DNA from: a virus
Taxonomy: Duplodnaviria; Caudoviricetes
IMG/VR virus record: IMGVR_UViG_3300021400_000529
Coordinates: 32,001 to 96,000 of that record
DNA length: 64,000 nt
Strand: one strand, 5' to 3'
Position numbers and translations under genes: made by a program. Shown piece by piece: positions 16,350 through 48,469 of the stretch. The notes beneath the pieces are model-generated. The model was not told the DNA's origin and searched no databases. It saw only the letters and a program-made list of their open reading frames with translations. The number at the start of each line of letters is the position of its first letter. The stretch's first letter is position 1.

Positions 16350-16925
16350 ATGGGTAAAAATAGGACAAATCAACACACATTTTCACAAGAAACAATACAA
16401 CAATTAGAAAACCATAAAAACTTATGGATAATGGGAGCATATGACTGGATAGACCAAGAAATGTCACAAGAAGAAATAGATTATGTTAAAGCAAACATGG
16501 AAAACATCACACAAATAACAAGTGGATCTGGTGGAATATATCGTGCAGAAAGCACTACTAGAACGTTCAACAAGGAAAAATTAAAAGAAGGTAAAGAGTT
16601 TCAATTCACTGAAGGCGGAACATTCAAAGCATTCAGCAAAGAACAGGATACAGCAGAAAAACATTCACTAGAATCACTTTTAATGAGAGATGATGTAACA
16701 TTATTCAACATAAAAAAAGGACGAGCATATGATGTAACCAAAGACATGGATACTCATGAAGAACAAGAAGTATGGGTGAATAATGAACAAAACTACAGAG
16801 TAACAAAAATTACTGAAACAACACCACAAGATTTAGAATATAATAAAAAATTCACCATACCAACACGAACATGGGACAAAATTAAAAATAAGAAAGTACG
16901 ATTGGTAGAAATAGAAGAGATATAA
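16350..16925 (+). CDS. MGKNR-tagged ADP-ribosyltransferase-like protein
   Basis: MGKNR start; IYRAE...FKAFSK...EEQEVWV (R-S-E pattern). Confidence 0.7.
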   Translation: MGKNRTNQHTFSQETIQQLENHKNLWIMGAYDWIDQEMSQEEIDYVKANMENITQITSGSGGIYRAESTTRTFNKEKLKEGKEFQFTEGGTFKAFSKEQDTAEKHSLESLLMRDDVTLFNIKKGRAYDVTKDMDTHEEQEVWVNNEQNYRVTKITETTPQDLEYNKKFTIPTRTWDKIKNKKVRLVEIEEI

Positions 16926-16965
16926 CACCACAAAAAAAGGGAATAGATAATGGATTAAAGGGATT

Positions 16966-17553
16966 ATGAAGTATAAAGGACCTTTCAAAACATTAGGATT
17001 ACATAATGACCATACCACACATGGCAGACCAGAACTTGATTACTATGGCACACCACCTAGTGCTGTGGAATGGTTACTCAAGTATGAAACATTCAACAAA
17101 AATGTATGGGAACCATGTTGTGGTGAAGGAAATATTAGTCGAACACTCCTAAATCATGGGTATAATGTTAAAAGTAGTGATATTCATGATTATGGTTATA
17201 GTGGTACTGTTGTGTCTGATTTTCTGGAACAAGAAGTTGTGTTTGATGGGGATATAATCACAAATCCCCCCTATAATAACATAACACCATTTGTGTTACA
17301 GGCATATAAATTATGTAAGAACAAAGTGGCAATGCTTCTTAAAATACAGTTCCTTGAAGGTATTCAAAGACATAAGGAAATCTTCAAGGAAATACCACCA
17401 AGCAAGATATATGTATTCACCAAAAGAATTGAATGTCTCCGACAGGGGCAGAAACCGAGGGGTAGTGCAATATGTTATTGTTGGATAATATGGGAAAAAA
17501 ATAACATTTACGAACCTATCATCCGATGGATACCAAACTATTCGGAGGCATAA
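16966..17553 (+). CDS. small DNA amino-methyltransferase
   Basis: DYYGTP, WEPCCGEG (motif I), IITNPPY (motif IV), YCWIIW. Confidence 0.85.
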   Translation: MKYKGPFKTLGLHNDHTTHGRPELDYYGTPPSAVEWLLKYETFNKNVWEPCCGEGNISRTLLNHGYNVKSSDIHDYGYSGTVVSDFLEQEVVFDGDIITNPPYNNITPFVLQAYKLCKNKVAMLLKIQFLEGIQRHKEIFKEIPPSKIYVFTKRIECLRQGQKPRGSAICYCWIIWEKNNIYEPIIRWIPNYSEA

Positions 17554-18099
17554 ATGGGAAAAAACAGACAACGAAATAATTATGCACTAACATTATCCAA
17601 CTACGAATGGGATAATGAATTCCTTGACATGGTTGATGAAGAATTAACAAATTACGTTGATAATGATGACATGTCATTCATGGACAATGACGAAATAACA
17701 GATTACATAGATGAACAAATGATTTCATCCAACCACCAGTTCACAAGAGTTGATAAAATAGAACACTTCCCAAATCTTGAAGAGGGAGACCCTATAGATT
17801 TTAATAGTTATTATGTTTCTTTTAGCGAAAGCATGACTGCTTCAAAACAGTACGCTAAAGAAATGGGTGGGTCTGACCAGTTAATTATCTTTAGAACAAA
17901 TGGCAATGTTAAATCATTTGATATGAGTGATTATGAGGATAGTTACTATTCATGGCAAGAAGAACATTTGTTACATGGTTATCCAGATGAAGGATGGATT
18001 GTTGATAAAGTAACTGATGTTACAAGTGATTCCCAGTTTCAAGATTTAACTCAAACAGGGGATGGTAAAGTGTTGTTGGTAGATATTTCTTTAGGATAA
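17554..18099 (+). CDS. MGKNR-tagged ADP-ribosyltransferase-like protein
   Basis: FTRVD...YVSFSES...WQEEHLL. Confidence 0.7.
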   Translation: MGKNRQRNNYALTLSNYEWDNEFLDMVDEELTNYVDNDDMSFMDNDEITDYIDEQMISSNHQFTRVDKIEHFPNLEEGDPIDFNSYYVSFSESMTASKQYAKEMGGSDQLIIFRTNGNVKSFDMSDYEDSYYSWQEEHLLHGYPDEGWIVDKVTDVTSDSQFQDLTQTGDGKVLLVDISLG

Positions 18100-18120
18100 A
18101 AATAATTATTTTGGAGTGTT

Positions 18121-18972
18121 ATGGTTAGAGATATTATTAAATTAGGTTCTCATAGAGTACTCTGTGGGGATGCAACTAGTAAAAAAGATGTGGATAAACT
18201 TGTTGGTAACCTGGAGGTTGATTTGTTGTTGACTGATCCACCGTATGGTATTAGTATTGTTCAACCTTCATCTGATGGGGTGGGTGGCAGAGTCAGTCCT
18301 CAATACAGTCAACCTTCAGCACAATTCAAGGGAGGGTCGGACACAAGGGAGGTCCGGGAATCACACCATTCAAGAAGTCGGAATCAGTGCAAAACCGAGC
18401 AAAACATTCACAACACACACACACCTAATGATAACAAGATCATTCCTGCAAGAACATATAAACCTGTCATCAATGATGACAAACCCTTCGACCCACAGCA
18501 CCTATTGGATCTGAATGTTCCTACAATACTATTCGGAGGAAACTATTTCGCAGACAATCTTCCTCAGTCTAACAAGTGGTTGGTATGGTATAAGAAACCT
18601 TCTCTTGATGGCAAACGGAATCATTTCAGTGACTGTGAACTGATGTGGACTAACCTTCCGGGAAAACGTGTTGACTGCTATCATCACACATGGAGTGGAA
18701 TGGTGAGGAAGGGTGAACGAAGACTAGAACTCAAAGAAAGAGTACATCCAACACAGAAACCTGTAGGATTATTAATGGATTTAATATGTGATTACACTGA
18801 ACCCAATGATGTAGTGTTGGACTTGTATGGTGGTTCTGGTTCCACATTAATTGCCTGTGAAGAAACTGGGAGGAGATGTCTGATGATGGAATTATCGAAG
18901 GATTATATAGAGATAATACAAGAACGATTCAATAATTATAGAAAAGAAAATGGGAAAAAACAGAAAAAATAG
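18121..18972 (+). CDS. DNA N6/N4 methyltransferase (phage ParB-MTase C-terminal type)
   Basis: LGSHRVLCGDAT, TDPPYG, HPTQKP, DLYGGSGST. Confidence 0.9.
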   Translation: MVRDIIKLGSHRVLCGDATSKKDVDKLVGNLEVDLLLTDPPYGISIVQPSSDGVGGRVSPQYSQPSAQFKGGSDTREVRESHHSRSRNQCKTEQNIHNTHTPNDNKIIPARTYKPVINDDKPFDPQHLLDLNVPTILFGGNYFADNLPQSNKWLVWYKKPSLDGKRNHFSDCELMWTNLPGKRVDCYHHTWSGMVRKGERRLELKERVHPTQKPVGLLMDLICDYTEPNDVVLDLYGGSGSTLIACEETGRRCLMMELSKDYIEIIQERFNNYRKENGKKQKK

Positions 18973-19813
18973 TTATTCGCCATTAACATTAAAAGAAAAT
19001 AGGGACTCTAAAGACATACGGATGCAAATGGCTTTTCTGAATAATGGATGGGATGATCCTACAGAATTAATAGATGCTTGTGCTGACAACAAAATAAAAA
19101 TTGGAGAAATTACTAAAGAATATGTTATCCTTGAAATGGATGATGGAACAAAGCTAAAAATGACATCAGCATTCTATGATAAATACAGAGCTACTGAAAT
19201 TAAATATGCGTCCCTTAATGAAATGTTTGAAAAACTCAATGAAATCCCCTCTTTATTCAGACATGATTTGAACGAAATAAAATTCGATTATATTCCAAAC
19301 TGGAGAAAGTCTTATTGGAACAGGGGGAACATATTCATTAATGCCCATTTCTTAGAAAATCCTAGGAATGATGATATGTTCATAATTGGAACTATCATAC
19401 ATGAGCATGCACACAATCTTGACTTAATGAAAAAGGGGATAACTGAAGAAACACCTATGGAAAAGGTGTTGAAAGATGGTTTCACCAACAATGACAAATT
19501 CAAGAAGTTAATTTCTAAAAAGGATGTTTCTGAATATAGTCAGGGTTATGGTGAAAAAAATGATCCAAGGTATGCGACTGAAAGTTTCGCAGATCTGATG
19601 GAAATAGTAGGAAAAGCACGAATTTATGGTGAAAATAGAATTGAAGCATCAATACTGGTAAAAGAATATAATGAAAAAACCGGAAAATATGATGAAAAAA
19701 CAGTTGGTTATATTGAATGGGCAAAAACTCATAAAGAATTAGCAGAATTTGGTAATAAAATATGGGATGCTGAAACATTAGAGGATGTTGAGAAAGCATT
19801 CAATGATTTGTGA
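18950..19813 (+). CDS. MGKNR-tagged zincin metallopeptidase
   Basis: HEHAHNLD...VSEYS...ESFAD. Confidence 0.8.
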   Translation: MGKNRKNSYSPLTLKENRDSKDIRMQMAFLNNGWDDPTELIDACADNKIKIGEITKEYVILEMDDGTKLKMTSAFYDKYRATEIKYASLNEMFEKLNEIPSLFRHDLNEIKFDYIPNWRKSYWNRGNIFINAHFLENPRNDDMFIIGTIIHEHAHNLDLMKKGITEETPMEKVLKDGFTNNDKFKKLISKKDVSEYSQGYGEKNDPRYATESFADLMEIVGKARIYGENRIEASILVKEYNEKTGKYDEKTVGYIEWAKTHKELAEFGNKIWDAETLEDVEKAFNDL

Positions 19814-19827: not shown

Positions 19828-20118
19828 TTAATAAATAGGCGTATTTCCCTCATTATCAACACTACTAATAACGAAACGAGAACCATCATCTTTGATAAAA
19901 CATTCTAGGAATTCCTTATGTCCCAATAAGATGCCTTCCATATCATAATGTCCACTAAATTTACTACTGCCTGTAAATACTATAATTTCACCTTCATCTG
20001 TTTTTTCGGTATGATATTCAGTATAGGGGTGTGTTGGGAATATTTCATATTCTTCCATCACTTTTGGAAGTTGTATGTCTAATCCCAAGTTTTTTAGCAG
20101 TTCTTTTAATGTTGTCAT
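19828..20118 (-). CDS. zincin-partner (putative immunity/inhibitor) protein
   Basis: Starts MTTLKELL; AGGTGA RBS; convergent with the zincin. Confidence 0.75.
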   Translation of the reverse strand: MTTLKELLKNLGLDIQLPKVMEEYEIFPTHPYTEYHTEKTDEGEIIVFTGSSKFSGHYDMEGILLGHKEFLECFIKDDGSRFVISSVDNEGNTPIY

Positions 20119-21828: not shown

Positions 21829-22251
21829 ATGGGAAAATCAAGGAATAAATCAACCACACCAACACAACCCACCCAAACAATAACCAACATGTCACCAAAG
21901 CAAGTAGATGACTATGTTGACAAAATAAAGAGTATGTCTGATAATGAATTAATGAAAGCTTACTCTGAGTTTGCATCTAACTGGACTTATGTTATTGAAT
22001 GGAATGGTGGTAGAAGAATGTCTAAATTTATCAGACCCTCTGATGATATAATTGGAGAGAATGGTATTTTGAGGGGTGGTAAAGATAATGTTAATCAACA
22101 ATTTGTAAATTTAAATAGGGTTAGATTGGAATTGGGTGCTGAAATGTTAAATCGAAATTTGGATAATGAGTATGGATATTCGGATGTTCCTTATTATGAA
22201 GTTGTTGATGGTGATATTCAGTTTCATCCATTTACTCCTACAAATGATTAA
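21829..22251 (+). CDS. MGKSR-tagged protein of unknown function
   Basis: Tag variant plus T/P/Q linker; body resembles 27726..28142. Confidence 0.75.
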   Translation: MGKSRNKSTTPTQPTQTITNMSPKQVDDYVDKIKSMSDNELMKAYSEFASNWTYVIEWNGGRRMSKFIRPSDDIIGENGILRGGKDNVNQQFVNLNRVRLELGAEMLNRNLDNEYGYSDVPYYEVVDGDIQFHPFTPTND

Positions 22252-25041: not shown

Positions 25042-25362
25042 ATGTCTGAAGTTACTTTAAAAGAGTTACTGCATAAATTTAATTTAGAATTAGATATTAG
25101 TTCAGTTTTATTGGATAAATCGATTAAATATTTTCAAAACAAGTCTTCCAAGGAGATCTTGGATTGCTATGTGGAACATCATACTGAAAAGGTAGATGGG
25201 AATATTATACACGTGTTTATGGAAGAGATGAATGGTAATCATCTTGAGTTAATTGTTGATGAAGAAAATAGTATGGTTACTGAATTGGAAATTTTGGATG
25301 ATGGTACTAGAAATGTGTTATTTTCATTTTCTGATGATGGGACAAGAAGGATATATGGTTAA
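25042..25362 (+). CDS. zincin-partner (putative immunity/inhibitor) protein
   Basis: VTLKELLHKFNLELDI...YVEHHTEKVDGNIIHVF aligns with 19828 and 29294; immediately upstream of a zincin. Confidence 0.75.
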   Translation: MSEVTLKELLHKFNLELDISSVLLDKSIKYFQNKSSKEILDCYVEHHTEKVDGNIIHVFMEEMNGNHLELIVDEENSMVTELEILDDGTRNVLFSFSDDGTRRIYG

Positions 25363-26922: not shown

Positions 26923-27084
26923 ATGGGTAAAAATTGGAGTAGTAGTAACAGTTCTGATTCTATAAATAATGATGGGGACAACGCTGTTAATCCTATGGAA
27001 GTAATGGAAAAATACTGTGGTGATTTAATAAATCTTTTTGAGGACGGCAGAAAAATTGATGATGAGGTTGATGTGTTTGGTTAA
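26923..27084 (+). CDS. MGKNW-tagged 53-aa micro-ORF (not in ORF track), possible relic
   Basis: Manually translated MGKNWSSSNSSDSINNDGDNAVNPMEVMEKYCGDLINLFEDGRKIDDEVDVFG. Confidence 0.55.
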   Translation: MGKNWSSSNSSDSINNDGDNAVNPMEVMEKYCGDLINLFEDGRKIDDEVDVFG

Positions 27085-27241: not shown

Positions 27242-27673
27242 ATGGGCAAAAACAGATCAACTTCAAACAATAATAATAATGGCAACGGTAATGCCTCCAA
27301 AAACAGTATTATACCACCAAGAATCACAAACTTCATATCAAACATTACCAACCAAGGTTTATTAAACCTAGAAAATATTCAACGCTTAGTTCAAAGAGAT
27401 ACTGTTAAAACAATCATGGATGAATCAAATATTACAAGGAATGACATAATTAAACAAATATTAACAGACAATCCAAATGGATTACCTGTAAATGAATATG
27501 ACCATGAAAGAATATTCTTAACTAATACTCCATCTGAATTCAAAATATATAAAGATGGAACAAATGAACTCCAACAGATATACAGTAAAGAATTTGTTAT
27601 GAGAAATATTCCTAAAAAACAAAGAGAATTTCAAGGTGGTCAACTGGACTGGAGTTCAGTTTTTAATAATTAA
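27242..27673 (+). CDS. MGKNR-tagged protein of unknown function
   Basis: MGKNR plus N/G-rich linker; AAGGTG RBS. Confidence 0.8.
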   Translation: MGKNRSTSNNNNNGNGNASKNSIIPPRITNFISNITNQGLLNLENIQRLVQRDTVKTIMDESNITRNDIIKQILTDNPNGLPVNEYDHERIFLTNTPSEFKIYKDGTNELQQIYSKEFVMRNIPKKQREFQGGQLDWSSVFNN

Positions 27674-28319: not shown

Positions 28320-29261
28320 ATGGGAAAAAATAGGAAAAGTAGTGGTGGAACTGGTGATAATGGAAATGAACCAACAACTTCTGATGAAATGTTCAATGAT
28401 GAACAATGGGAAAATGTGCATACAGCGGAAGAAATTGCGGAATTAACTGGATGGGAATTCACCAAGACACAAAGAGGTAGTTATAAATTTTATGATCGTG
28501 AACATGATTTAACATTGTTTATTGATAAGACAATGTTAACTAATGGTTTCATCAATGCGGATAGTGATGGTGGTAACCATCTTAAAAGTAATTATGGAAG
28601 TGCTCAACCTCAAGATCTTCGTGACATTGCTCGGATGGTTCATGAGTTGCCAGATAAAAATAAAGAAGCAACACCTCTTATTCTATTCAGAAATAATTTC
28701 AAAACAAGATATTTAGGTGAGCATGTTCATCACAGTGATTTCTGGGATGAAATTATTCCTGGACATGAAGTTGTTATTAACTCCTCTTCTTTCAAAAGTG
28801 TTGCTGGACATAGTCTTAGAAGAACACTTTTACATGAAACGTATCATGCAGAAGATTATATGAGGGGTACTGGCAGTAAATCATACGCTTCTGATGCTTT
28901 TGGTATTTCTAATAAACAGTCTTTCAAGAATGCTATTGACTTGGATGTTCAGAATTATGGTAGTAAAGGTATTTCGATGAATTCTGGTGGATATGCTCGT
29001 GGAAGTGTAACTTATTATAAGGAATGTTGGGCTGATGCTGCAAGTATTGTTCAACTTAAGAGGATGGGTTATTCTAATGAAAAAATTAAGTTACGTGATG
29101 GATCACTTGTAACTGTTGATGATTGGATTAAAACATATCCTAATACTTATAAATCTGTTTCAAATGAATTGGATAACAATGCTGTACTTCCATTCCAAAG
29201 GGGAGAAGATTATAATATAATAAGAGATTCGTTTGTGAATAAATATAAATTAAACAAGTAA
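28320..29261 (+). CDS. MGKNR-tagged zincin metallopeptidase
   Basis: True start ATG 28320; HETYHAED...ECWAD; close paralog of 36095. Confidence 0.8.
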   Translation: MGKNRKSSGGTGDNGNEPTTSDEMFNDEQWENVHTAEEIAELTGWEFTKTQRGSYKFYDREHDLTLFIDKTMLTNGFINADSDGGNHLKSNYGSAQPQDLRDIARMVHELPDKNKEATPLILFRNNFKTRYLGEHVHHSDFWDEIIPGHEVVINSSSFKSVAGHSLRRTLLHETYHAEDYMRGTGSKSYASDAFGISNKQSFKNAIDLDVQNYGSKGISMNSGGYARGSVTYYKECWADAASIVQLKRMGYSNEKIKLRDGSLVTVDDWIKTYPNTYKSVSNELDNNAVLPFQRGEDYNIIRDSFVNKYKLNK

Positions 29262-29629: not shown

Positions 29630-29643
29630 ATTTTTTTTACTCC

Positions 29644-32496: not shown

Positions 32497-32498
32497 AG

Positions 32499-33245: not shown

Positions 33246-33292
33246 TTAAACTATAATTTTTTTTTGTGTAAATACTTTTTTTTGGAGAATTT

Positions 33293-33952: not shown

Positions 33953-33974
33953 TGTAAGGAGAGATGTGTGTTAT

Positions 33975-36094: not shown

Positions 36095-36988
36095 ATGGGT
36101 AAAAATAGGAAAAGTGGTGGTAGTGGTGGTGGAAACCAGCCTTCTGATGATGAATTAACATGGCAATCCGTAAAAGATGATCCTGAAAAAATTGCGGAGT
36201 TAACTGGTTGGAAATTCACCAAGTATGGTGATGGCAGTTATGATTTTTATGACAAAGAAAATGATTTTCATCTTAAATTAACTGCTCAAACATTAGAAGA
36301 ATTAAAAGATGCACCACTCATGCTTAACAGGATGGTAAAAATAGTTTATAACTTGCCAGATATGAATAAGCAGGTAACACCGAGTATGTATATTATATCT
36401 CCACCACCATATAGGAATGGAGTTTATGGTCAACATATGTCTATCCAGAATAAATATACTAAGGAAGTGCTTGGTCATAGTGTAGCAATTAACTCATCAG
36501 TATTCACAGAAGATGATGATGAAGTTACAAGGATTATGTTACATGAAACTAATCATGCACTTGATTATATTATGGGTGGACTTAAAGACAAAACCAGTAT
36601 TTCCCATTCACGTGAGTTTAAAAATGCTCTTAAATTAGATGGTCCATCCACAGATTATGGTGAATCAACAAAGTATAAAATAAATAAAAATGGTATTATC
36701 ACTGGAGAGTATTCAGAGAGGAGTTTGTATACTAAAGGTTCTAAGTGGTTGACTGAGAATTATGCTGAAGCTGGAAGTATTGTGCAACTTAAAAGATTAG
36801 GGTATGGTTCATCTGAGATTGAATTGCCTGGTGGTAAGTATGTGACGGTTGATGATTGGTGTGAATCTCATAGTCATGTTTATAATGTGGTTAATGATTT
36901 CCTTGATGATTATGATATGAATAATTATGGTAAACCTAATGTTAGTCATGAGATGATTGATAAGCGGTATTCTAATAATATTATTTAG
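36095..36988 (+). CDS. MGKNR-tagged zincin metallopeptidase
   Basis: HETNHALD...STDYG...ENYAE. Confidence 0.8.
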   Translation: MGKNRKSGGSGGGNQPSDDELTWQSVKDDPEKIAELTGWKFTKYGDGSYDFYDKENDFHLKLTAQTLEELKDAPLMLNRMVKIVYNLPDMNKQVTPSMYIISPPPYRNGVYGQHMSIQNKYTKEVLGHSVAINSSVFTEDDDEVTRIMLHETNHALDYIMGGLKDKTSISHSREFKNALKLDGPSTDYGESTKYKINKNGIITGEYSERSLYTKGSKWLTENYAEAGSIVQLKRLGYGSSEIELPGGKYVTVDDWCESHSHVYNVVNDFLDDYDMNNYGKPNVSHEMIDKRYSNNII

Positions 36989-37305
36989 TTGTTTGTGGTT
37001 ATTTCATAGTTTTCGTCAAGTATTGTGCTGGTGTATACTGGTGTTTTACTGTCTTCTGTGTGTATGATTTCTGTCCATGATGGTGGTGTGTTTAAGTCGA
37101 GTATGTTTTCGATTTTTACTAGTTTTCCGTCTACTTTGTTTTCTGTGGTGAATACGTGGATTGTTTTTCCTTCTATTGTTTCCTTGTGGTATTCTCCATA
37201 TGTTTTGATGGGTTCTCCTAGTTGGTAATTTAGTACATGTTCTGGAATATCATTTTCTGGTGTTATTTTGTAATGTTTAATTAAATCTTTTATTGTTTTT
37301 ATCAT
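36985..37305 (-). CDS. zincin-partner (putative immunity/inhibitor) protein
   Basis: MIKTIKDLIKHYKI...YGEYHKETIEGKTIHVF; stop overlaps the zincin stop. Confidence 0.75.
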   Translation of the reverse strand: MIKTIKDLIKHYKITPENDIPEHVLNYQLGEPIKTYGEYHKETIEGKTIHVFTTENKVDGKLVKIENILDLNTPPSWTEIIHTEDSKTPVYTSTILDENYEITTNN

Positions 37306-37461: not shown

Positions 37462-38121
37462 ATGTCAAATGAAGATAATGATGAATATAATTATGATGAA
37501 AGAATTAAGAATGAAACTGTGAAAGCTTTTGCTTATTTTAACACTTACTTGGAGTTAGGACCAAATCGTTCACTGAGTAAAGTACGAGAGAAACATAATA
37601 ATGATATTAGTTTACATCAGTTAAAGAATTATAGTAAAAAATATCATTGGGTTTCCAGAGCAAACAAGAAAGATGAAGATGACTTACAAGTACATAAGGA
37701 AAAGTTACGAGAGGAACAGGAACAGTACTTTGATAAGAGAATGGAACAACTTGACCAGTATCATCAAGCAACAGATGCTGTTCTTGGTCAATTGATGGTT
37801 GACCTCGGACTTATTCCAAATCCAAAAACAAAAGAGTTCGAACCCAATGACCGTGTGAACAGTACTACAGTTGCCAACAGTATTCAAAGTCTTACTAATG
37901 CTAATGCTGTAACTACTAAATTAGCTCTTCGTTTCCTTGGTTTACCAGAGCAAGTTAATGATACACAGGAAGTGGAAGTTAAAGCTGATGTTTCCACAGA
38001 TTATAATGAGGAGTTGAATAAACGGTATGCTGAGTTTAGTGAATCCATCATGGACAAAGCATTCATTAACAAACAGTTAGATTTGATAGATAAAATGATT
38101 GAAAACAAGAATAAGCAATAA
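37462..38121 (+). CDS. probable terminase small subunit
   Basis: AFAYFNTYLELGPNRSLSKV...YHWVSRA HTH-like N-terminus plus coiled coil; lies upstream of portal and TerL. Confidence 0.6.
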   Translation: MSNEDNDEYNYDERIKNETVKAFAYFNTYLELGPNRSLSKVREKHNNDISLHQLKNYSKKYHWVSRANKKDEDDLQVHKEKLREEQEQYFDKRMEQLDQYHQATDAVLGQLMVDLGLIPNPKTKEFEPNDRVNSTTVANSIQSLTNANAVTTKLALRFLGLPEQVNDTQEVEVKADVSTDYNEELNKRYAEFSESIMDKAFINKQLDLIDKMIENKNKQ

Positions 38122-38136: not shown

Positions 38137-39126
38137 ATGGGTAAAAATAGGAAAAGTGCTGGTGGTGGTGCTGGAGAACCAATTCCCACTGAACCAGAAA
38201 TAGATTATTCAGAACAAAACAATGAAGTGTTCCAAGAAATATGTAAAGAAAAGGGTGTTGGACCTAAAGCTAAACAAAAATTAATAGAAATTTTAGAATT
38301 TTGTAATGACAACAACCTAGAATTAACTAAAGGTATAACAATATCATCTCCTAAAAAAGATAATCCTTGGTTTAAGTATGGTGGAACTGCACGGGCAACT
38401 ATTGTTGACAAGGAAACCGGTAAGAAAATCAGTATTTTTGATGACATGCTCAAAGGAAAAAATGCTGATGAATTATCCAAAGAATCATTGGATAACCTGT
38501 TAAAAGGTATACGGTATGAATATGAACATACAAACCCAGAATTCCATAATCTGTATTCTGACATTTTGTTAACAAACCATCGTTTAATACAGGATAGTGG
38601 TAAATGGGTTGCTAGTGGTGGATACGCATTCTTTGACCCGGTAGTACCGAATGCAATTACTATTAGAAGTAGTATGTTGGGTAAACAAGATTTCACTAAA
38701 CTGGGTAAAAATTCATATGGTCATCAATGGAATGAAAACTCTGTTAAAAAGATGGCCGCCACTATTGCTCATGAAAATGGTCATGCTTATGATTATCATG
38801 TGATTGGTAAGGGTACTGGTACTGACCAACCTTCTATTTTCACTGAACATGGACGAAATACTAATACTATTGGTCCATGCTCTTATGCTACAGATGTTCC
38901 TGGTGAAACAATTTCAACAGTCTGTGAGATGGTTATTAATAGAAGAGTTAGAAGTGATGCTAATTTGAGTGATGGCACGAGTATTGATGATGCGTACCAT
39001 GATAAGTATGGTAAATGGCCATCTTCTGTGCCTTCTGCTACGGAGAGTAAGAGAATGTATGAAATATGGTCCAATGATCCACAGTGGGCTCCTTTGATTG
39101 CTGAAGTTGAAGGGTTTATGTTATAA
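38137..39126 (+). CDS. MGKNR-tagged zincin metallopeptidase
   Basis: HENGHAYD...CSYA...GET. Confidence 0.78.
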   Translation: MGKNRKSAGGGAGEPIPTEPEIDYSEQNNEVFQEICKEKGVGPKAKQKLIEILEFCNDNNLELTKGITISSPKKDNPWFKYGGTARATIVDKETGKKISIFDDMLKGKNADELSKESLDNLLKGIRYEYEHTNPEFHNLYSDILLTNHRLIQDSGKWVASGGYAFFDPVVPNAITIRSSMLGKQDFTKLGKNSYGHQWNENSVKKMAATIAHENGHAYDYHVIGKGTGTDQPSIFTEHGRNTNTIGPCSYATDVPGETISTVCEMVINRRVRSDANLSDGTSIDDAYHDKYGKWPSSVPSATESKRMYEIWSNDPQWAPLIAEVEGFML

Positions 39127-39205: not shown

Positions 39206-39562
39206 TTAATATTTTACTCCCCATTGTTCTCCTTTGTAGTCTAAGTCGTAGGAGATTGGTTCCTCATATTTTTTGTTGGTTGGTTGTTGTGTGATGGTTA
39301 TTGTCATGGAACGGTAGTCTTCTGGTGTGTAATTGATTGTTATTTCATAGTCTTTGAATTTGTATGTGTATGTTTCTGTTTTTTCGTTTGTTGTATGTGT
39401 TGGTTGTGGTATTTGGTTTAGTGTTACTGTTTCCTCTTTGAATAGTGGCTTTGTTTGTGGGTTGTCTGAGAACAGTATTGTTTCTTTGAGTTTTTTGCTC
39501 ATGTTTTCTGTGTTTATGTTGGTTTTGTGTTTTTTTATGATGTTTTCTATGGTTATGTTCAT
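39206..39562 (-). CDS. zincin-partner (putative immunity/inhibitor) protein
   Basis: MNITIENIIKKHKTNI; AAGGTGA RBS; convergent with the zincin. Confidence 0.68.
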   Translation of the reverse strand: MNITIENIIKKHKTNINTENMSKKLKETILFSDNPQTKPLFKEETVTLNQIPQPTHTTNEKTETYTYKFKDYEITINYTPEDYRSMTITITQQPTNKKYEEPISYDLDYKGEQWGVKY

Positions 39563-39884: not shown

Positions 39885-41504
39885 ATGGCAATACAACAAT
39901 TTATAGTAACAAACCATAACAACGAATGGGAAGTCATAGAAAAAAGCATACTGGACAGGTATGTGATTAAAGAAGATGACCTCAAAGTACAATCCAAATC
40001 AGTACATGACGAATTTGATTACAGTGAATTCAAAAGACCACAATTCAACCTCAAAAAATTATGTGAACTACTAGACAACAACACATACCACAGACGATGT
40101 TGCGAAGTAGTAGCCGAAGATGCAAGTGGATATGGATACAATATAGTTCCACTAAACCAGGTACATGATGATTCTAACGAAAATGAAGATCAAAAAGAAT
40201 TCATAGAAGAATTTCTTAAATCATTATATACTCCCATAAACACAGCACTATACAAATACTGCTATGATAAAAGAGCAGTAGGATGTGGGTGTATGGAAAT
40301 ACTACGTGAAAGTACAAGCAAAAGCAACATAGTAGACCTTAACCCAATACCTATATTCAACATGCTCGTACACAGAGATGGAGTAAGAGTACTTCAAAGA
40401 GTAGGAGCAAAACAACGATGGTTTGTATTATATGGTAAAAATGTAACTCCTGATGGCGTAAAATTTGATGTTCATTGTGATACTGGTAAACAGGTAGAAT
40501 ATGATACACTTGACCCAACAGAAAGAGCTAACGAACTCATATGGGGAGTAAACTATGCACCACATACTCCAACATATGGAAGTGCCAAAATAGTTCCAGC
40601 AATAAGAGCAATATTCGGAGACCTTAGCAGAGCAAGATACAACAATAGTTTCTTCCAAAACTATGGAATGCCATCATACGCAGTAGTGGTTACTGGTGAC
40701 TTTGATACGGGAGCAGACCCAGAGGACCCAGATTATGATGAAACAGAAACCTTGAAATATAAAATCAAGGAGAATATGGAAAATGCTGTAAAAAATCCTC
40801 ACAGTGCATTTGCCATGCTTATTCCTTCCTCAGAAGGTAATGTTCATGTTCAGTTCCACAAATTAAATGCTGGTGGAAGTAATGAGGCAAGTTTCAGATT
40901 ATACCGAGCAGATAACAGGGAAGAAGTAATGAGTGCTCATGGAGTACCACCTTACCGGATAGGACTTGCAATTAATGGAACACTTGGTGGAAGTACAAGT
41001 GTTGAAAGTGGAAACATTTACAACACCAGTATTATTCAACCAATCAAAAAGAAAAACGAGGACATTGTAAATGAAGTGTTGGTTAATGAGTATAATCAGA
41101 GGTTTGGGAAAGAAGAAACACAACTTTCATGGGTATTTAAAATAGAAGAAATAGATAAAAGAGATTACTTCCGTGATTTACAAAGTGCAAATATGTTATT
41201 TAACATGGCTGCCATGACTCCACGTCAAGTTTGTGAAAGTCTTGGAAAACCTATTGGTGCTATAGCAGACCCTGATAATCCATACCTTGATGAATATTTC
41301 ATACATGGAACTCCTTTATCATTAATGTTCAAGAACAATGAGATGGGTGAGTCACATAGTGTTCTTGATAAATTACATATTCAACAGCAAATGTGGATTA
41401 ATGAGTTACAGGCAAGATTGGGTGCTATGCAAATGGGTATTGATGCTGGTATGATTCCAACAAACGCACCGAATCCCACATTTGATGAATTAAACAAGGA
41501 CTAA
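39885..41504 (+). CDS. portal protein (PBSX/HK97-like)
   Basis: YNNSFFQNYGMPSYAVVVTG, EVMSAHGVPPYRIG, MTPRQV motifs; 539 aa. Confidence 0.88.
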   Translation: MAIQQFIVTNHNNEWEVIEKSILDRYVIKEDDLKVQSKSVHDEFDYSEFKRPQFNLKKLCELLDNNTYHRRCCEVVAEDASGYGYNIVPLNQVHDDSNENEDQKEFIEEFLKSLYTPINTALYKYCYDKRAVGCGCMEILRESTSKSNIVDLNPIPIFNMLVHRDGVRVLQRVGAKQRWFVLYGKNVTPDGVKFDVHCDTGKQVEYDTLDPTERANELIWGVNYAPHTPTYGSAKIVPAIRAIFGDLSRARYNNSFFQNYGMPSYAVVVTGDFDTGADPEDPDYDETETLKYKIKENMENAVKNPHSAFAMLIPSSEGNVHVQFHKLNAGGSNEASFRLYRADNREEVMSAHGVPPYRIGLAINGTLGGSTSVESGNIYNTSIIQPIKKKNEDIVNEVLVNEYNQRFGKEETQLSWVFKIEEIDKRDYFRDLQSANMLFNMAAMTPRQVCESLGKPIGAIADPDNPYLDEYFIHGTPLSLMFKNNEMGESHSVLDKLHIQQQMWINELQARLGAMQMGIDAGMIPTNAPNPTFDELNKD

Positions 41505-41566: not shown

Positions 41567-42463
41567 ATGGTAAACTCTGATAAAATTTTAAATTATCTTA
41601 TCAAACAACATTATAACTCTTTACAACTCTTAGAGAGTAATTATGATACATCAGTTATAGGATTTCGTTCAGGATTATTTAAATTATTCCAAGATACACA
41701 AAGAGATATAAACAAATACTTTGGGAACAATCCAGTTAAATTAGAATCAGAATCAGATATAATTTCTGTAATTAATGAAATACAACCCATCACTGATTCA
41801 TTTCTTGGAAAGTATGAGAAATTATTGAATAAATGGTTAAACCTCTCAGTAACTGTAGGAAGGAAACATGGCTTAATAATGAACACCCATAACCTGATTG
41901 ATTCCGACATGTATGAAGTAAATATTATGGGAGGTGCTGATAATAAACAGGGTGGGTATGGGAACCTTAACCCTTTTTCTGATGAGGTTTCTTTTCAGAG
42001 ACAGTATCTTGAAAAAAAAATAATAAATAATCTCTCACGAATATTAGAGGAAAATAAACTTTATGAAAGTAATATTTCATCAGATAATCATAGAAAAGTA
42101 GTTATTAACCAACCAGATACCTTGTTTAACCATTTTTTCAACCAATTATCATCTACTTTTAATAATAACGTTTCTTCTTTATTGTTACATCGTTGGATTA
42201 ATTATGGATTATACTCCCAATATGAACAGTATAATGAGTATCACGTATGGTATTCTCGTGAGGATGAGCATGTTCGTCCTTCACACCAGAAGTTGCACGG
42301 GGAGGTAAGGAAAGTGGGAGAACTTTTCTCAAATGGTTGTTTATATCCTGGTGATGAAAATGGAATACCAGAAGAAGTGATGAACTGTCGATGTTACACA
42401 TTACCCTTTAATGTAAATGATTTACCATCAGGTTTAAGGAGTGAAATAAGAAAATATGGGTAA
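41567..42463 (+). CDS. MuF / SPP1 gp7-family head morphogenesis protein (short form, no fused toxin)
   Basis: WYSREDEHVRPSHQKLHGEV...FSNGCLYPGD...EVMNCRC; directly after portal. Confidence 0.88.
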   Translation: MVNSDKILNYLIKQHYNSLQLLESNYDTSVIGFRSGLFKLFQDTQRDINKYFGNNPVKLESESDIISVINEIQPITDSFLGKYEKLLNKWLNLSVTVGRKHGLIMNTHNLIDSDMYEVNIMGGADNKQGGYGNLNPFSDEVSFQRQYLEKKIINNLSRILEENKLYESNISSDNHRKVVINQPDTLFNHFFNQLSSTFNNNVSSLLLHRWINYGLYSQYEQYNEYHVWYSREDEHVRPSHQKLHGEVRKVGELFSNGCLYPGDENGIPEEVMNCRCYTLPFNVNDLPSGLRSEIRKYG

Positions 42464-43271
42464 AAATCGGAAAAGTAGTGATGGTAAAAGTGGAGGAATT
42501 GTTAATCCTAACATAACTGGTGAAGTTCAAAAGGAATTGGATGAACTGGTTAAAGAGGAGGGAATAACATATACAATCACAGAAAATGGTGTGACAGTTG
42601 AACGAAATGGTATTGTCTATGAAGTAGGTAATGTGTTTCTTGAAAATAAAAGATTCAGTATTAATGGAAACACACCAGAAACACTTAAAAAAGTATTCAC
42701 ATATTATGATGAGTTCCCAAAAGAAATTCAAACAGTTAATAAAATTAATTTAATCTCTGACCCTACCAAAAAACCAGAAGTATTCGGATATTATAAACCA
42801 GACAACCCTAATGAAATAACATTATTACCATCAATACTTTCAGATAAGTATTATGCGAGTGATGGGAATTATAACAGTTTCAGGTATGTGATGTATCATG
42901 AGTCTGCACATAGTCTTGATTATTCTATGACCAAGTCTTGGGATCCTTTCACGGAAAGTCGATGGTGGATGATGGCTAATGCTGGGAAAGAAGCAGTATC
43001 TTATTATGGAAAGTATGCTTATATGGTTGGTGGTAATCCTGACCGTGAAAACTTTGCGGAGATGGTTGCTATACAAGCAACATATGAAGTTACTGGTCGG
43101 TGTGATAATATTCAGAAAGCAACGGAGTATTCATCGGATGAGGTTGTTTATAAAACTTACGAGGATTGGCATAAATCTAGTCCTGATTATGGAAAATATG
43201 ATCAATCATATGAATGGGTTGATGAAGTGTACCAGTTGGTAAAAGAGAAATATGAGAAAGGATATTATTAA
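42456..43271 (+). CDS. MGKNR-tagged zincin metallopeptidase
   Basis: HESAHSLD...VSYYG...ENFAE; 8-nt overlap with the MuF end. Confidence 0.8.
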   Translation: MGKNRKSSDGKSGGIVNPNITGEVQKELDELVKEEGITYTITENGVTVERNGIVYEVGNVFLENKRFSINGNTPETLKKVFTYYDEFPKEIQTVNKINLISDPTKKPEVFGYYKPDNPNEITLLPSILSDKYYASDGNYNSFRYVMYHESAHSLDYSMTKSWDPFTESRWWMMANAGKEAVSYYGKYAYMVGGNPDRENFAEMVAIQATYEVTGRCDNIQKATEYSSDEVVYKTYEDWHKSSPDYGKYDQSYEWVDEVYQLVKEKYEKGYY

Positions 43272-43543
43272 CTCATAATTATGTGTTTACCATTTTTATC
43301 ATATGCATTGTAATGTCGGTCGGATGTTATGGATAATTCTTGTGTGGTTTCATTGTATTCTACTGTTATTTGTAAATCTATGTCTTCGATTTTTCCGGAA
43401 AATGTGTGGATTGTTTGTTTGTTTTCAGTTCTTTTTTCATACTTGCATGTGTGTTCATCAATGTATAGTTCCATTTCACCTAATTTGGGGGGGATGGTAA
43501 TGTTTATGTTTTTGTATTTTAGTAAATTTTTAAGCGTTATCAT
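43268..43543 (-). CDS. zincin-partner (putative immunity/inhibitor) protein
   Basis: MITLKNLLKYKNINITIP...YEKRTENKQTIHTFSG. Confidence 0.75.
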   Translation of the reverse strand: MITLKNLLKYKNINITIPPKLGEMELYIDEHTCKYEKRTENKQTIHTFSGKIEDIDLQITVEYNETTQELSITSDRHYNAYDKNGKHIIMS

Positions 43544-43702: not shown

Positions 43703-45211
43703 ATGACTACTGATACTGATATTCCCATTAATTATTATAACCCTGCTTCATTGAATATTGCGATGTGGGGTCAATTAATTACGGAAGGTAAATGGGAGCC
43801 AAGACATTTTGACAAGATAATCATAGAATTCCTTTACTATGCTTTACAGGGTAAGATTTCTAAGATAATGATAAGCGTACCTCCAAGGCATGGAAAAAGT
43901 ACTTTGATAAGTAAAATATTTTGTTCATATTTTCTTGCAAACTTTCCTAATGAACAAGTAATTCTTTCATCATATTCTATGGGTTTGGCAAGTGAATTTG
44001 GTGGTGAAGTAAAAGATATATTAAACTTTTACTCTGATCAAACCTTACTCAAAGCTGGATTATCCTCTGACAGTAAAGCAAAAAACAAGTTCCATATGAG
44101 TCCACCTTTCAAGGGACAAATGTTAAGTGTGGGTGCAGCAGGTTCTATTTTAGGATTTGGTGCTGGATTATTTATCATTGACGACCCTATTAAAAACATT
44201 GCTGAAGCAGAAAGTCCAGTTTTACAAGAGAAACTTAACTCATGGTTTCATACCACAGCAAAAACAAGGCTTCAGAAAAGAAGCAATGGTCTTCCACCAA
44301 TAATGTTAGTTATTGCACAAAGATTACATGTGAATGATTTACAAGGTATTATTAAACGGAATGAACAATGGATACCAGCAAAAGAAGCACTAGAAGCATT
44401 ACGTGAAGGAAAAGGATTTAATGAAAATGTATGGATTGACTTAACACTACCAGCAATATGTGAAAACCCAGAGGAAGACCTTCTTGGAAGAGAAGAAGGA
44501 GAAGTATTATGGCCAGAACAACAAAACTATGAAAACTTAATGGCTGCTCGTAGAAGTATGGGAAGTTACTTGTTTAATGCAGTTTACCAAGGTAATCCTT
44601 CTATAAGACAAGGAAACATATTCAGAAGAGAATGGTTTTATGATGAAGGAGAAGTCACACCTAACTGTATTATTGATAAATCCGAACTTCCTGAAGATTT
44701 ACCAACACAAAGATACTGGGATTTTGCGGCCAACAGTAAAGTCAAAAAAGGAACTCCTCATGGTGACGAAACCAGTGGTGTATTAACAGGTTATGATGGA
44801 ACAACATTATATGTAATAGATTTGGTTAACAACAATTTCACTCCAAAACAAGTAAATGAAACATTCATCAGGACAGCATTGAAAGATGGTAAACAAACAA
44901 AAGTATTTATCGAGGAAGAACCTGGAAGTGGTAGCCGAATTCTTATTAACATGTACAGAAACAATCCAAAACTCAAGGGTTGGAATATAAGACCTGATAA
45001 AGTTAAGGGTCCTAAGAATATTCGAAGTTTTTCACTTGAAAATCTGGCAGAAAGTGGTAATATCAAGTTTGTAAGGAACAAATGGAATAATAAGATGATA
45101 GAACAGTTAATCAGTTTCACTGGTGAGGATGGTGAACGTGATGATATTGTGGACAGTTTAACTGGTAGTGCTCGTATGTGGTTGCATAAGAAAACTAAAA
45201 TAATATTATAA
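43703..45211 (+). CDS. terL: terminase large subunit
   Basis: Walker A VPPRHGKS, Walker B FIIDDP, YQGNP, RYWDFA, EEEPGSG, RDDIVDS. Confidence 0.93.
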   Translation: MTTDTDIPINYYNPASLNIAMWGQLITEGKWEPRHFDKIIIEFLYYALQGKISKIMISVPPRHGKSTLISKIFCSYFLANFPNEQVILSSYSMGLASEFGGEVKDILNFYSDQTLLKAGLSSDSKAKNKFHMSPPFKGQMLSVGAAGSILGFGAGLFIIDDPIKNIAEAESPVLQEKLNSWFHTTAKTRLQKRSNGLPPIMLVIAQRLHVNDLQGIIKRNEQWIPAKEALEALREGKGFNENVWIDLTLPAICENPEEDLLGREEGEVLWPEQQNYENLMAARRSMGSYLFNAVYQGNPSIRQGNIFRREWFYDEGEVTPNCIIDKSELPEDLPTQRYWDFAANSKVKKGTPHGDETSGVLTGYDGTTLYVIDLVNNNFTPKQVNETFIRTALKDGKQTKVFIEEEPGSGSRILINMYRNNPKLKGWNIRPDKVKGPKNIRSFSLENLAESGNIKFVRNKWNNKMIEQLISFTGEDGERDDIVDSLTGSARMWLHKKTKIIL

Positions 45212-45229: not shown

Positions 45230-46141
45230 ATGGGAAAGAATAGAAAAAGTGGTGGTGGTTCTGGTGGTGGTAACAGTGCTCCGAGAGAAACACCAGAACA
45301 GTTCCAGCAGAGAGTTGACTTAGCTGAAAGTCTGATGACTGTTGAAATGCATATGATGGAAAAAGGAGCATTATCCAAGCCACAAATCAAAAGGTTGCTT
45401 AATACAGTAATGGATGAAAATACTGATTATGTTGGTTTGGTTCGGAAGAATGGTGCTTTTTTCCTACGGTTTGAGGAAAAGTTAGTGTCTCCTGATGGTA
45501 CTGAGCATACACATACACTTAACTTCAATACAGCTTCTTATAAGAATATGTATAAGAAGGATGCTATCATATCTATTGAGGAAATGATTTCTGCTTATAG
45601 GGATATTCCTGAGTTTAATAGGAATATGGCTTATAATTATTATTTTGGACAAACTACAGATGGTGATTGCAGTAAGCTTGGAGGATTATTTAAACCATCA
45701 GACAAATCAGTAAATATTGGTGTAGGATGTTTTAGTAACAAGAAAAGAAGTAGTAAAGATTGGATAAGAAATGTTTTAAACCATGAAAATACTCATGCTT
45801 CTGATTATGTAAATGTGGGTGGTTATATGACTCATTTAAGTCGAGATTCACCAGTTTTCAAAAGAATTATGAGTACAAACAAGGCTAGTGCATACAGTGA
45901 AAGTTATGGTGGTTGGAAATATTATTCAGAAAGTATAGCTGAAGCAGTAGCAGTAACAAGGATGTACAGGAAATATGGTAATGATCATGCTTTGATTTGT
46001 GATCCGGAAAAAAGTTATGTTGTAGGTAATGAAATTGATTATAAGACGTGGGCTAAACGGTATCCTGACTTGGCTAAGTTTGCTAACGATTTCATTGATT
46101 GTGATAGTGAATCGAAATTAAGGGGATTGTTTGAAGTTTAA
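45230..46141 (+). CDS. MGKNR-tagged zincin metallopeptidase
   Basis: HENTHASD...ASAYS...ESIAE. Confidence 0.8.
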   Translation: MGKNRKSGGGSGGGNSAPRETPEQFQQRVDLAESLMTVEMHMMEKGALSKPQIKRLLNTVMDENTDYVGLVRKNGAFFLRFEEKLVSPDGTEHTHTLNFNTASYKNMYKKDAIISIEEMISAYRDIPEFNRNMAYNYYFGQTTDGDCSKLGGLFKPSDKSVNIGVGCFSNKKRSSKDWIRNVLNHENTHASDYVNVGGYMTHLSRDSPVFKRIMSTNKASAYSESYGGWKYYSESIAEAVAVTRMYRKYGNDHALICDPEKSYVVGNEIDYKTWAKRYPDLAKFANDFIDCDSESKLRGLFEV

Positions 46142-46160
46142 TTTAAGAATGTTATTGGTT

Positions 46161-46436
46161 TTACATTAAATCTTCAGTGCCATCTTCATGTACAACATAT
46201 CCGGCGGTTGGTAATCCTTCAGATTCTTTTTCAAATGTGATTGTTTTTTTATTTTCATTGATTGTGATTGTGTCTGTGATTGGTCCTGTTGTTTTTGTGA
46301 AGATGTGTTGGTTACCTTCTTGTTTGTATGTGTACTGGTCTGCTGGTGGCATTATTAATCCTATTGTATGCTCTCTGAGTGTTTCTGGTATGTTCGTTTG
46401 AATATTATATTCTTTTATTAAATCATTAACTTTCAT
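46161..46436 (-). CDS. zincin-partner (putative immunity/inhibitor) protein
   Basis: MKVNDLIKEYNIQTNIP...YTYKQEGNQHIFT; AGGTGA RBS. Confidence 0.72.
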   Translation of the reverse strand: MKVNDLIKEYNIQTNIPETLREHTIGLIMPPADQYTYKQEGNQHIFTKTTGPITDTITINENKKTITFEKESEGLPTAGYVVHEDGTEDLM

Positions 46437-47053: not shown

Positions 47054-47059
47054 TAAGTT

Positions 47060-47479
47060 ATGGGAAAAAACAGAAGTAGTCAAAACAAACAAGGTACAGT
47101 TCCATCCTCTTTAAATTCTGGGATGATAACGGAGGAATTTTCCAGATTATCCGATGTTCAAGAAGAATATAGTTTTATAGAGGGACAATTGGAAGGAGAA
47201 CCTGATGATTTTTATGAAACAAGATATTCATTATCTCAATCAATCATTGCATCAATTAATGAAGTTAAACGAACGATGTTAAAGTTAAGGGAGAATCCAT
47301 CTGACCAAGGATTGTATGATGAGTATAAGGAAAGGGAAAAGATAACTTTAGACTTTATTAATGCTTATTTTAGTTTTTTAAGGAGTTCACCATATTATGG
47401 TAATGCTGTGGATTGGTCCGAGCCTTATACTTCAATAGCATTTTCACCAGAAGTAGGGCATGGTGAACCTGTAATATAA
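47060..47479 (+). CDS. MGKNR-tagged helical protein of unknown function
   Basis: MGKNR plus S/Q linker. Confidence 0.8.
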   Translation: MGKNRSSQNKQGTVPSSLNSGMITEEFSRLSDVQEEYSFIEGQLEGEPDDFYETRYSLSQSIIASINEVKRTMLKLRENPSDQGLYDEYKEREKITLDFINAYFSFLRSSPYYGNAVDWSEPYTSIAFSPEVGHGEPVI

Positions 47480-47494
47480 TAATGGAGTAGTATA

Positions 47495-48007
47495 ATGGGG
47501 AAGAATAGGAGTCGTAATAGGCAACCTTCTGGTAGTAATGGTGAATCACCAACAATTGGTGATATGGAAATACCTAATGGTGTTGACACGATAACTGTGC
47601 AACCAGAGGAAAATCCTGGAACAAGAACAACACTTGAAAGAAATGAAGAAAAAATAAGGAAGGAACTAAACCAGTTATATAGTGATGTTTATGATGCTGA
47701 AGAAGAAAGAAGTTTCTTACATAGGGATATGTTAGACCGTCAACGAGAAGTTCAAAACATACAAGATAAGTTAGATGCTGTGAAAGCAAGTCCTAACGCA
47801 ACGGAGATAAGGATTACTGACCTTCAAAGACAATTAGATAAAGCTAATCGTGAATATGGTCAAGCTACGACTTTGTATGAGAAACAGAGAGATAAAGTTC
47901 AGGAGATGAATAATCGTATTTTCGAGTTAGAAACGGGTTTTAGTGGTACCGCTCCTTATGTTAATTGGGCAAAAGGAGAAATTGGAAATGATGATGATGG
48001 ATTATAA
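47495..48007 (+). CDS. MGKNR-tagged coiled-coil protein
   Basis: MGKNR; long heptad region from about residue 45 to 145. Confidence 0.8.
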   Translation: MGKNRSRNRQPSGSNGESPTIGDMEIPNGVDTITVQPEENPGTRTTLERNEEKIRKELNQLYSDVYDAEEERSFLHRDMLDRQREVQNIQDKLDAVKASPNATEIRITDLQRQLDKANREYGQATTLYEKQRDKVQEMNNRIFELETGFSGTAPYVNWAKGEIGNDDDGL

Positions 48008-48022
48008 AAATGGTAAATAATT

Positions 48023-48469
48023 ATGGGTAAAAATAGAGCAAGTACTTTACCAACTATGAGTGAAGATACTGCTGGAACAATATTTAATAAGGAAATAAGT
48101 AATCCTAATCCCGAAACAACTATAAAAATTGGGGAAAGAACTGTGGAATTACCTCGTGGTTATACAAAAGAAATGTTGGATAATAATTTAATGCGAACTA
48201 TGTTAAAGGATGTTCAACGGAACAGAATTACTGGTGAAGTAGGTTACTTATCTGGAAATCCTAAAGCAGATTTATATGAACTGTATGAATCTCCATATTA
48301 TCCATGGTCTGAAACATTTCCTAATTATGGTGATTTTGAAAGATATTATGAACAAAATGTTGAACCAAAAATGTTGGAACAAAGACAAGCTATGATGGAT
48401 TATCTTAAAGAACATGATGATAGGGTTATGGTTACAGCATATGGTTGGTTGAATGGTGATTATGAATAA
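48023..48469 (+). CDS. MGKNR-tagged protein of unknown function
   Basis: MGKNR; last member before the prohead protease. Confidence 0.8.
   Translation: MGKNRASTLPTMSEDTAGTIFNKEISNPNPETTIKIGERTVELPRGYTKEMLDNNLMRTMLKDVQRNRITGEVGYLSGNPKADLYELYESPYYPWSETFPNYGDFERYYEQNVEPKMLEQRQAMMDYLKEHDDRVMVTAYGWLNGDYE

Follow-up and report, generated by a model that had tools for sequence, protein, structure and literature searches.

The internal proteins of the T-even phages have only an N-terminal leader in common, which directs their packaging, and they are encoded in variable loci (PMC12373910, PMC3012670, PMC7697877). This leader, the capsid-targeting sequence (CTS), is thought to act at prohead assembly, and the cargo that carries it (Ip1-3, Alt and the products of the variable ip loci) includes an ADP-ribosyltransferase and anti-host proteins (PMC12373910, PMC3012670, PMC7697877). 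A second described system is that of the MuF toxins, which bear metallopeptidase and ADP-ribosyltransferase (ART) domains and have small immunity open reading frames (ORFs) behind them (PMC5576092); MuF-fused effectors are regarded as head-packaged (PMC5576092, PMC9503650), and packaging is also assumed for phage ARTs whose genes lie next to head genes (PMC9503650). Here we analyse a 64,000-nucleotide stretch of a Caudoviricetes virus genome, bases 32001-96000 of IMG/VR record IMGVR_UViG_3300021400_000529 (hereafter the window), in which 23 ORFs begin with the peptide MGKNR or a one-residue variant of it. We read this tag, with a probability of roughly 55%, as a lineage-specific N-terminal address that loads free effectors into the procapsid, like the T4 CTS. 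Encapsulin cargo-loading peptides offer a third comparison: there, various enzymes are docked inside an HK97-fold shell by a short peptide at one end of the protein, on a flexible linker. Such peptides mostly sit at the C-terminus, measure about 10 residues and keep their sequence from lineage to lineage, and no ejection is involved.

The resemblance to the T-even system lies in one short N-terminal leader being the sole common part of otherwise unrelated proteins of one virus, in fast-changing loci and in a cargo of similar kind. The window virus differs in being archaeal, in having a tag of 4-5 polar residues and a disordered linker where the T-even CTS has about 10 residues, and in carrying 23 members where T-even phages have 3-10; packaging, moreover, is here a proposal. 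The tag has been replaced wholesale between sister viruses, the cargo appears to consist mostly of enzymatic toxins with small partner genes, and no cleavage motif was seen. By inspection, neither MGKNR nor the tags MASK and MGNN of related viruses show similarity to the T4 leader MKTYQEFIAE, to which only the MVKY leader of one further contig is loosely alike. With the MuF polymorphic toxins the window shares the metallopeptidase and ART repertoire, small adjacent ORFs and a position of the genes beside portal and terminase, and homologues of its zincin and other cargo domains are found on MuF in related Methanobrevibacter proviruses. The effectors of the window are, however, unfused, and where the MuF toxins have their MuF carrier domain they have a short N-terminal tag.

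A literature search, in which subscription papers were incompletely covered, yielded no description of a tagged-effector system in methanogen or archaeal viruses, and the string MGKNR gave one irrelevant match. This fits the supposition of an earlier note on the window (the sequence-only reading) that no such system had been described in archaeal viruses, the principle itself being known from T-even internal proteins (PMC12373910, PMC3012670). The leader principle (T4) and the effector repertoire (MuF toxins) are already known; new are the archaeal-virus setting, a tag of only 4-5 residues, a set that makes up about 10% of the genome and the complete exchange of the tag on orthologous cargo from one sister virus to another, together with the apparent use of a tag in place of MuF fusion.

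A common N-terminal tag on 23 ORFs

The tagged ORFs all lie on the plus strand between positions 16350 and 48469 of the window, and MGKNR is exact in 21 of them:

16350-16925, plus, ART-like, MGKNR, 191 aa, invariant R-S-E columns
17554-18099, plus, ART-like, MGKNR, 181 aa, invariant R-S-E columns
18950-19813, plus, zincin (HEHAH), MGKNR, 287 aa, groups with a MASK-tagged zincin of the sister virus G001
21829-22251, plus, MGKSR protein without recognised family, 140 aa
25372-26187, plus, zincin (HEMAH), MGKNR, 271 aa
26224-26886, plus, ART-like, MGKNR, 220 aa, structure predicted
26923-27084, plus, short MGKNW ORF, 53 aa, probably decayed
27242-27673, plus, MGKNR protein without recognised family, 143 aa
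27726-28142, plus, MGKNR protein without recognised family, 138 aa
28166-28249, plus, MGKNR remnant, 27 aa, probably decayed
28320-29261, plus, zincin (HETYH), MGKNR, 313 aa
30109-30828, plus, ART-like, MGKNR, 239 aa, invariant R-S-E columns
30840-31385, plus, ART-like, MGKNR, 181 aa, invariant R-S-E columns
34766-35464, plus, ART-like, MGKNR, 232 aa, invariant R-S-E columns
35528-36055, plus, MGKNR protein without recognised family, 175 aa
36095-36988, plus, zincin (HETNH), MGKNR, 297 aa, structure predicted with pLDDT 93 and low confidence in residues 1-20
38137-39126, plus, divergent zincin (HENGH), MGKNR, 329 aa
42456-43271, plus, zincin (HESAH), MGKNR, 271 aa, 5' end overlapping the 3' end of the MuF gene
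45230-46141, plus, zincin (HENTH), MGKNR, 303 aa
46553-47053, plus, MGKNR protein without recognised family, 166 aa
47060-47479, plus, MGKNR protein without recognised family, 139 aa
47495-48007, plus, coiled-coil protein, MGKNR, 170 aa, G001 homologue MASK-tagged
48023-48469, plus, MGKNR protein, 148 aa, 40% identity to a MASK-tagged protein of G001

All 23 starts and their translations agree with those listed in the sequence-only reading, and its counts of six ART-like proteins and seven zincins hold; the other members, about ten in all, are a coiled-coil protein and a remainder without recognisable family. Its description of the bodies as otherwise unrelated is correct in that several families are present (at least 12 by sequence) and too strong in that two paralogous families account for 13 of the 23. 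The ORFs at 28166 and 26923 are probably decayed copies since they encode only 27 aa and 53 aa, respectively. No Pfam match above cut-offs was obtained for any of the tagged proteins, none of which has a MuF domain, and a PHROGs search with five of them was likewise without a match.

No further copy of the tag was found elsewhere in the 137,316-bp genome, and in its gene set GKNR was N-terminal in 20 of 20 occurrences and never internal to a protein. From amino-acid composition, GKNR is expected after the start Met at 1.3e-5 per ORF or about 0.002 per genome, against the 21 cases seen. The coding pattern ATGGGNAARAAYMGN occurs, in any context, only five times in five Methanobrevibacter genomes (10.3 Mb), so the likely hosts do not habitually start their genes in this way.

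The codons of the tag vary synonymously: Gly is GGT in 11 copies, GGA in 10 and GGC and GGG in one each, Lys is AAA in 19 and AAG in four, Asn is AAT in 17 and AAC in five, and Arg is AGA in 11, AGG in nine and CGT and CGG in one each. At Gly, Lys and Asn these choices track the codon usage of the genome, and at Arg AGR is used in 20 of 22 copies compared with 65% genome-wide. Over the 23 starts the information content is high only from nucleotide 0 to +14, with a drop at codon third positions, and upstream of the ATG it does not exceed 0.4 bit except at position -1. The tag is accompanied by no shared promoter, ribosome-binding-site spacing or repeat, and an upstream DNA motif was sought at the 23 starts and not found. 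The restriction of conservation to codons 1-5, the third-position dips and the background level upstream show that selection acts on the peptide, as had been proposed from the synonymous variation, and codon usage and information content together support this. Behind the tag comes a stretch rich in S, G, N and T, and residues 1 to about 20 were of low confidence in both structural models made (a zincin and an ART-like protein), as expected if they form a flexible leader.

Different tags on homologous cargo in sister viruses

Complete genomes with different tags were compared for two viruses, the window virus and G001; the relative with the tag MGNN is represented by a 9.9-kb contig and that with a leader ending NYLSLISRG by a 3.3-kb contig. 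G001 is a sister virus of 141,779 bp, whose core genes are 75-95% identical to those of the window genome (TerL 77%). In the region equivalent to the tagged array, 23 of its ORFs begin with MASK (one of them with MTSK), and the two tags are mutually exclusive, G001 having no MGKNR and the window genome no MASK. The cargo of the two viruses is only 20-40% identical or not detectably similar and its gene order is rearranged, so that it occupies hypervariable loci between conserved core genes as does that of T4-type CTS systems. The order of TerL and portal in G001 is opposite to that in the window. A portal search of viral contigs returned only G001, which was already known.

Four of the cargo families are represented in each of the two complete genomes, and homologues of the ART-like family bear MGKNR, MGNN and MASK tags. 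A word-based homologue search from the zincin at 36095 gave one relative only; a zincin profile search of 1.84 billion representative proteins gave 183 matches, the N-termini of which fall into the discrete tag classes of the window virus and its relatives. In the zincin tree the tags interleave: the window zincin at 18950 groups with a MASK protein (support 99/97) and that at 42456 with another (90/88). With 51 sequences the tree needs 18 tag changes, and its well-supported branches force at least four to six per class. Within orthologous groups the body starts at a common motif, for instance PRETPE[EQ]F or TW...DDPEK, and the tag and linker before it differ. Since the bodies are orthologous and the tags interleave in the tree, tags have been replaced in parallel on many genes while each genome remained uniform, and this genome-by-genome replacement on orthologous cargo is a clear case of concerted evolution.

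Ser in the G001 tag is encoded by AGY in 23 of 23 copies compared with 42% genome-wide, which means that descent or copying, rather than repeated point mutation, has spread the tags. This speaks against the suggestion of the sequence-only reading that, by gaining about 15 nt, any gene could become part of the cargo. A tag that is uniform within a genome and replaced between genomes requires a common N-terminal reader that differs between lineages.

Leaders of other composition were found in G001 and in further relatives. Seven MASK proteins of G001 (L001, 149-21356) share a leader of 28 residues, consisting of MASKG, a Gly run and ASY.D.GIDDYPTYLN, in front of unrelated bodies. This longer leader represents a second tier of sharing within a single genome. 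On the 9.9-kb contig L020, whose TerL is 85% identical, MGNN[TP] begins the ORFs around TerL. An ORF of the ART family on the same contig (6661-7044) lacks both the N-terminal third and the tag, and is probably a truncated cargo gene. The 139-kb virus L030 has both MGKSR and MGKNR, and near 9980 and 18204 it contains two decayed copies, an ART gene with ATT in place of the tag ATG (I-GKSR) and a gene with RGKNRG in frame upstream of a new Met. Decayed tagged genes in the window and in L030 suggest a birth-and-death turnover of cargo genes. The 3.3-kb fragment L019, with a G001-like TerS, encodes zincins with a 14-residue leader that ends in NYLSLISRG and is followed by a Gly run. On the 180-kb contig L032 (ERZ14210012 NODE_8), from a more distant virus, a 15-residue leader, MVKY..II..I..Y, is carried in a locus (6139-15670) upstream of the terminase by at least nine proteins including zincins and ARTs; with Tyr at position 4 and hydrophobic residues at 7-8 it is the one leader that loosely resembles MKTYQEFIAE. 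Other genes of this locus have a second recurring N-terminal module (..LSITEYVK.YGSPNE.. and ..SYSHKPHLA.LPHDRRTND..).

Predicted functions of the cargo and its partner ORFs

In the ART-like family R79, S105 and E154 are invariant in 10 sequences, which is the Arg-Ser-Glu (R-S-E) signature of R-S-E mono-ADP-ribosyltransferases. The model of the protein encoded at 26224 had a predicted local distance difference test (pLDDT) score of 81.5. Among its listed PDB matches, those with a probability of at least 0.5 were mono-ART toxins, although these matches were weak (E about 1e-3, template modelling (TM) score 0.3-0.4). In the zincin family no variation was seen at H150, E151 and H154 and little or none at E221, residues corresponding to the HExxH motif and downstream Glu of gluzincins. 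The best PDB matches of the model of the zincin at 36095 were anthrax lethal factor (LF) and M1 aminopeptidases, again weak (E 4e-3, TM 0.37). From these residues and the model, the tagged zincins are predicted to be gluzincin metallopeptidases similar to LF/M34 and M91.

A small untagged ORF adjoins each of the seven zincins, mostly in convergent orientation, and five of the small ORFs can be grouped into one family, whose members have an N-terminal T(L/I)KELL and an EYHTEK..G..IHVF motif:

19828-20118, minus, partner ORF convergent with the zincin at 18950, untagged
25042-25362, plus, partner-family ORF just upstream of the zincin at 25372, untagged
29294-29976, minus, two small untagged ORFs convergent with the zincin at 28320, the one at 29294-29695 in the partner family
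36985-37305, minus, partner ORF convergent with the zincin at 36095, untagged
39206-39562, minus, small untagged ORF convergent with the zincin at 38137
43268-43543, minus, partner ORF convergent with the zincin at 42456, untagged
46161-46436, minus, small untagged ORF convergent with the zincin at 45230

The same arrangement of zincin and small ORF is present in L020 and L030. By analogy with the small ORFs behind MuF toxins, the partner ORFs may encode immunity proteins for the zincins.

MuF fusions in relatives and candidate readers

Among longer zincin homologues of 550-650 aa, eight of 10 carry an N-terminal Phage_Mu_F domain. In small relatives of the window virus (IMG/VR contigs and proviruses of Methanobrevibacter metagenome-assembled genomes (MAGs), with TerL 53-57% identical) MuF is 602-1370 aa long in eight of eight, and five of these eight proteins contain HExxH and give zincin-profile or BLAST matches to the tagged zincins. 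At its C-terminal end, one small-relative MuF has a domain with 35% identity (E 4e-26) to a singleton of G001 that is MASK-tagged. No toxin domain is fused C-terminally to MuF in the window itself, the fused forms being confined to the relatives. We read these sequence relationships as indicating that a polyvalent MuF effector was split into separate cargo genes, the tag probably assuming the role of the carrier.

The tagged array begins behind a block of DNA methyltransferase genes and ends at the prohead protease gene, which lies directly 3' of the last tagged ORF, with TerS, portal, a short MuF and TerL interspersed; this gene context is as the sequence-only reading had described it. The head genes are the following:

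37462-38121, plus, small terminase subunit (TerS), untagged
39885-41504, plus, portal protein, untagged
41567-42463, plus, MuF head protein, short (298 aa) and separate, untagged, without homologue in G001
43703-45211, plus, large terminase subunit (TerL), untagged
48531-50198, plus, XkdF-type prohead protease, 555 aa, with a probable scaffold in its C-terminal part, candidate reader
50478-51665, plus, probable major capsid protein, untagged, candidate reader

MuF had been proposed among the head components that might bind GKNR. As a general reader it is unlikely, because G001 has MASK tags and yet no MuF homologue, even in a search at E 10 with a lineage-specific profile. With 555 aa, the prohead protease of the window is longer than that of the small relatives (313-350 aa), and its extra part comprises about 170 aa of acidic, low-complexity, G/T/S/D-rich sequence followed by a conserved helical C-terminus. 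Judged by this composition, the extra part may be a fused scaffold and thereby a candidate docking surface. Complex prediction of the tag N-terminus (as a 22-sequence alignment) with the capsid protein and with the protease-scaffold, run without controls, gave a score of 0.00, which speaks neither for binding nor against it.

Explanations of the tag

If the tag is a capsid-loading address, MGKNR and the disordered S/N/G/T-rich stretch behind it would be bound by a component of the assembling head, for which the protease-scaffold protein, the interior of the capsid protein and the portal are the candidates. The tagged proteins would be made late alongside the head genes, enclosed in the procapsid, and would enter the next Methanobrevibacter cell together with the DNA. 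Such a cargo would consist of enzymes with fast turnover, namely LF-like zincin peptidases and R-S-E ART-like proteins, and of about ten proteins without a recognised fold, and the untagged partner ORFs would neutralise the zincins in the producing cell. In this lineage the tag system would take the place of the polyvalent MuF-effector fusions of the smaller relatives. The sorting address for head-loaded effectors put forward in the sequence-only reading thus gains indirect support from the sister tags on homologous cargo and from the MuF fusions, and loses two of its parts, the MuF reader and the 15-nt route of joining.

Several points weigh against capsid loading. Packaging is deduced rather than directly demonstrated, and the position of the array among head genes is circumstantial in this respect, as methyltransferase and QueC genes share the stretch. 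Four to five residues are very short for a docking peptide, and they are unlike the T4 CTS. MuF, the obvious candidate for a reader, is missing from G001. In the alignment of 22 N-termini no conserved cleavage motif was found after the tag or linker, and a search for longer homologues of the ART family, which was a weak one, found no MuF-fused form.

Capsid loading, if correct, would make these the first archaeal viruses with evidence of an injected effector arsenal, and would show a natural transition from carrier fusion, as in the MuF toxins, to a detachable address tag. A tag of 4-5 residues could then serve to find packaged effectors from sequence alone and to load foreign proteins into capsids, and its replacement between sister viruses makes the reader of a capsid-loading signal testable by co-variation. 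The cargo represents a catalogue of candidate host-takeover or anti-defence proteins against gut and rumen methanogens.

One may speculate further that the large Methanobrevibacter viruses use a private code of 4-5 residues, with one tag per lineage on about 23 free effectors and a co-evolving head reader, so that a virus loads and injects no arsenal but its own. Such a code would have replaced the ancestral MuF-fusion carrier and been re-set between sister lineages, perhaps excluding the cargo of a co-infecting rival or escaping a host factor that recognises the tag. We put this extended proposal forward tentatively and would not expect it to hold in full; if it did, the tag would be the shortest known and fastest-switching capsid-loading signal, and the first in an archaeal virus.

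The tag could instead be the signal for some other common fate, such as timed activation by a viral or host protease, binding by a chaperone or inhibitor, N-terminal modification or a set half-life, with a reader that co-evolves in each lineage. Selection on the peptide, uniformity within genomes and replacement between them need a common reader, and one of any kind would do. The tag is also N-terminal throughout, and in three tag classes position 2 is Gly or Ala, which would allow removal of the start Met, as methionine aminopeptidase cleaves it off before these residues. An exposed Gly or Ala is nevertheless not general, since the leaders of other lineages start with MF, MY or MV, and the array holds neither a candidate modifying enzyme nor an extra protease, its untagged genes being those for DNA methyltransferases, ParB_N, QueC and head proteins. 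As the fusion of the same domains to MuF in relatives would also be left unexplained, we consider this alternative unlikely.

Still less probable is that the tag is a resident 5' slot, behind which bodies are swapped by recombination in low-complexity linker DNA, and that uniformity stems from history and a good initiation context with no reader involved. The bias towards AGY for Ser in G001 and towards AGR for Arg in the window is what spread by descent or copying would leave, the G/S-rich linkers are repetitive DNA, and the divergence and rearrangement of cargo against a core of 75-95% identity agree with swapping. There is, however, no DNA conservation upstream of the ATG or past codon 5 to mark such a slot, and the third positions of the tag drift while its residues are invariant, which indicates purifying selection on the peptide. 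Body swapping is compatible with the reading of an address, and may be a route by which cargo is renewed.

That the conserved element acts as RNA, as a translation enhancer or as an operator at the start codon for a translational regulator such as T4 RegA, might be supposed from the A-rich sequence immediately after the ATG and the location of the members in one late co-oriented gene block, but it is highly improbable given that synonymous sites follow genome usage (CGT and CGG for Arg included), that information dips at every third position with nothing upstream, that capsid, portal and terminase genes lack the element and that the coding pattern is as scarce in Methanobrevibacter as described above.

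Genome, host and neighbouring genes

The viral genome has a G+C content of 32.7%, and comparison of its first 110 and last 110 bases revealed an identical (AAT)n run and about 60 further identical bases at both ends. This repetition at the ends shows that the genome is complete or almost complete, and it is consistent with circular assembly or with terminal redundancy.

Among isolates, Methanobacterium virus Drs3 has the closest TerL (58% identity), and the best-matching bacterial phages have about 31% identity. An earlier search of prokaryote-genome contigs with two TerL sequences as query gave no match; with a broader TerL alignment, five of five related loci in prokaryote genomes were in Methanobrevibacter MAGs. 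This relatedness and the G+C content point to Methanobrevibacter as the probable host of the window virus.

At least nine DNA methyltransferase genes lie between 10791 and 24992. Within the cargo array, at 31954-34736, two ParB_N-like genes, a 248-aa gene without assigned family and a QueC homologue (E 7e-42) form a group that, by its gene content, looks like a 7-deazaguanine-type DNA-modification cluster.

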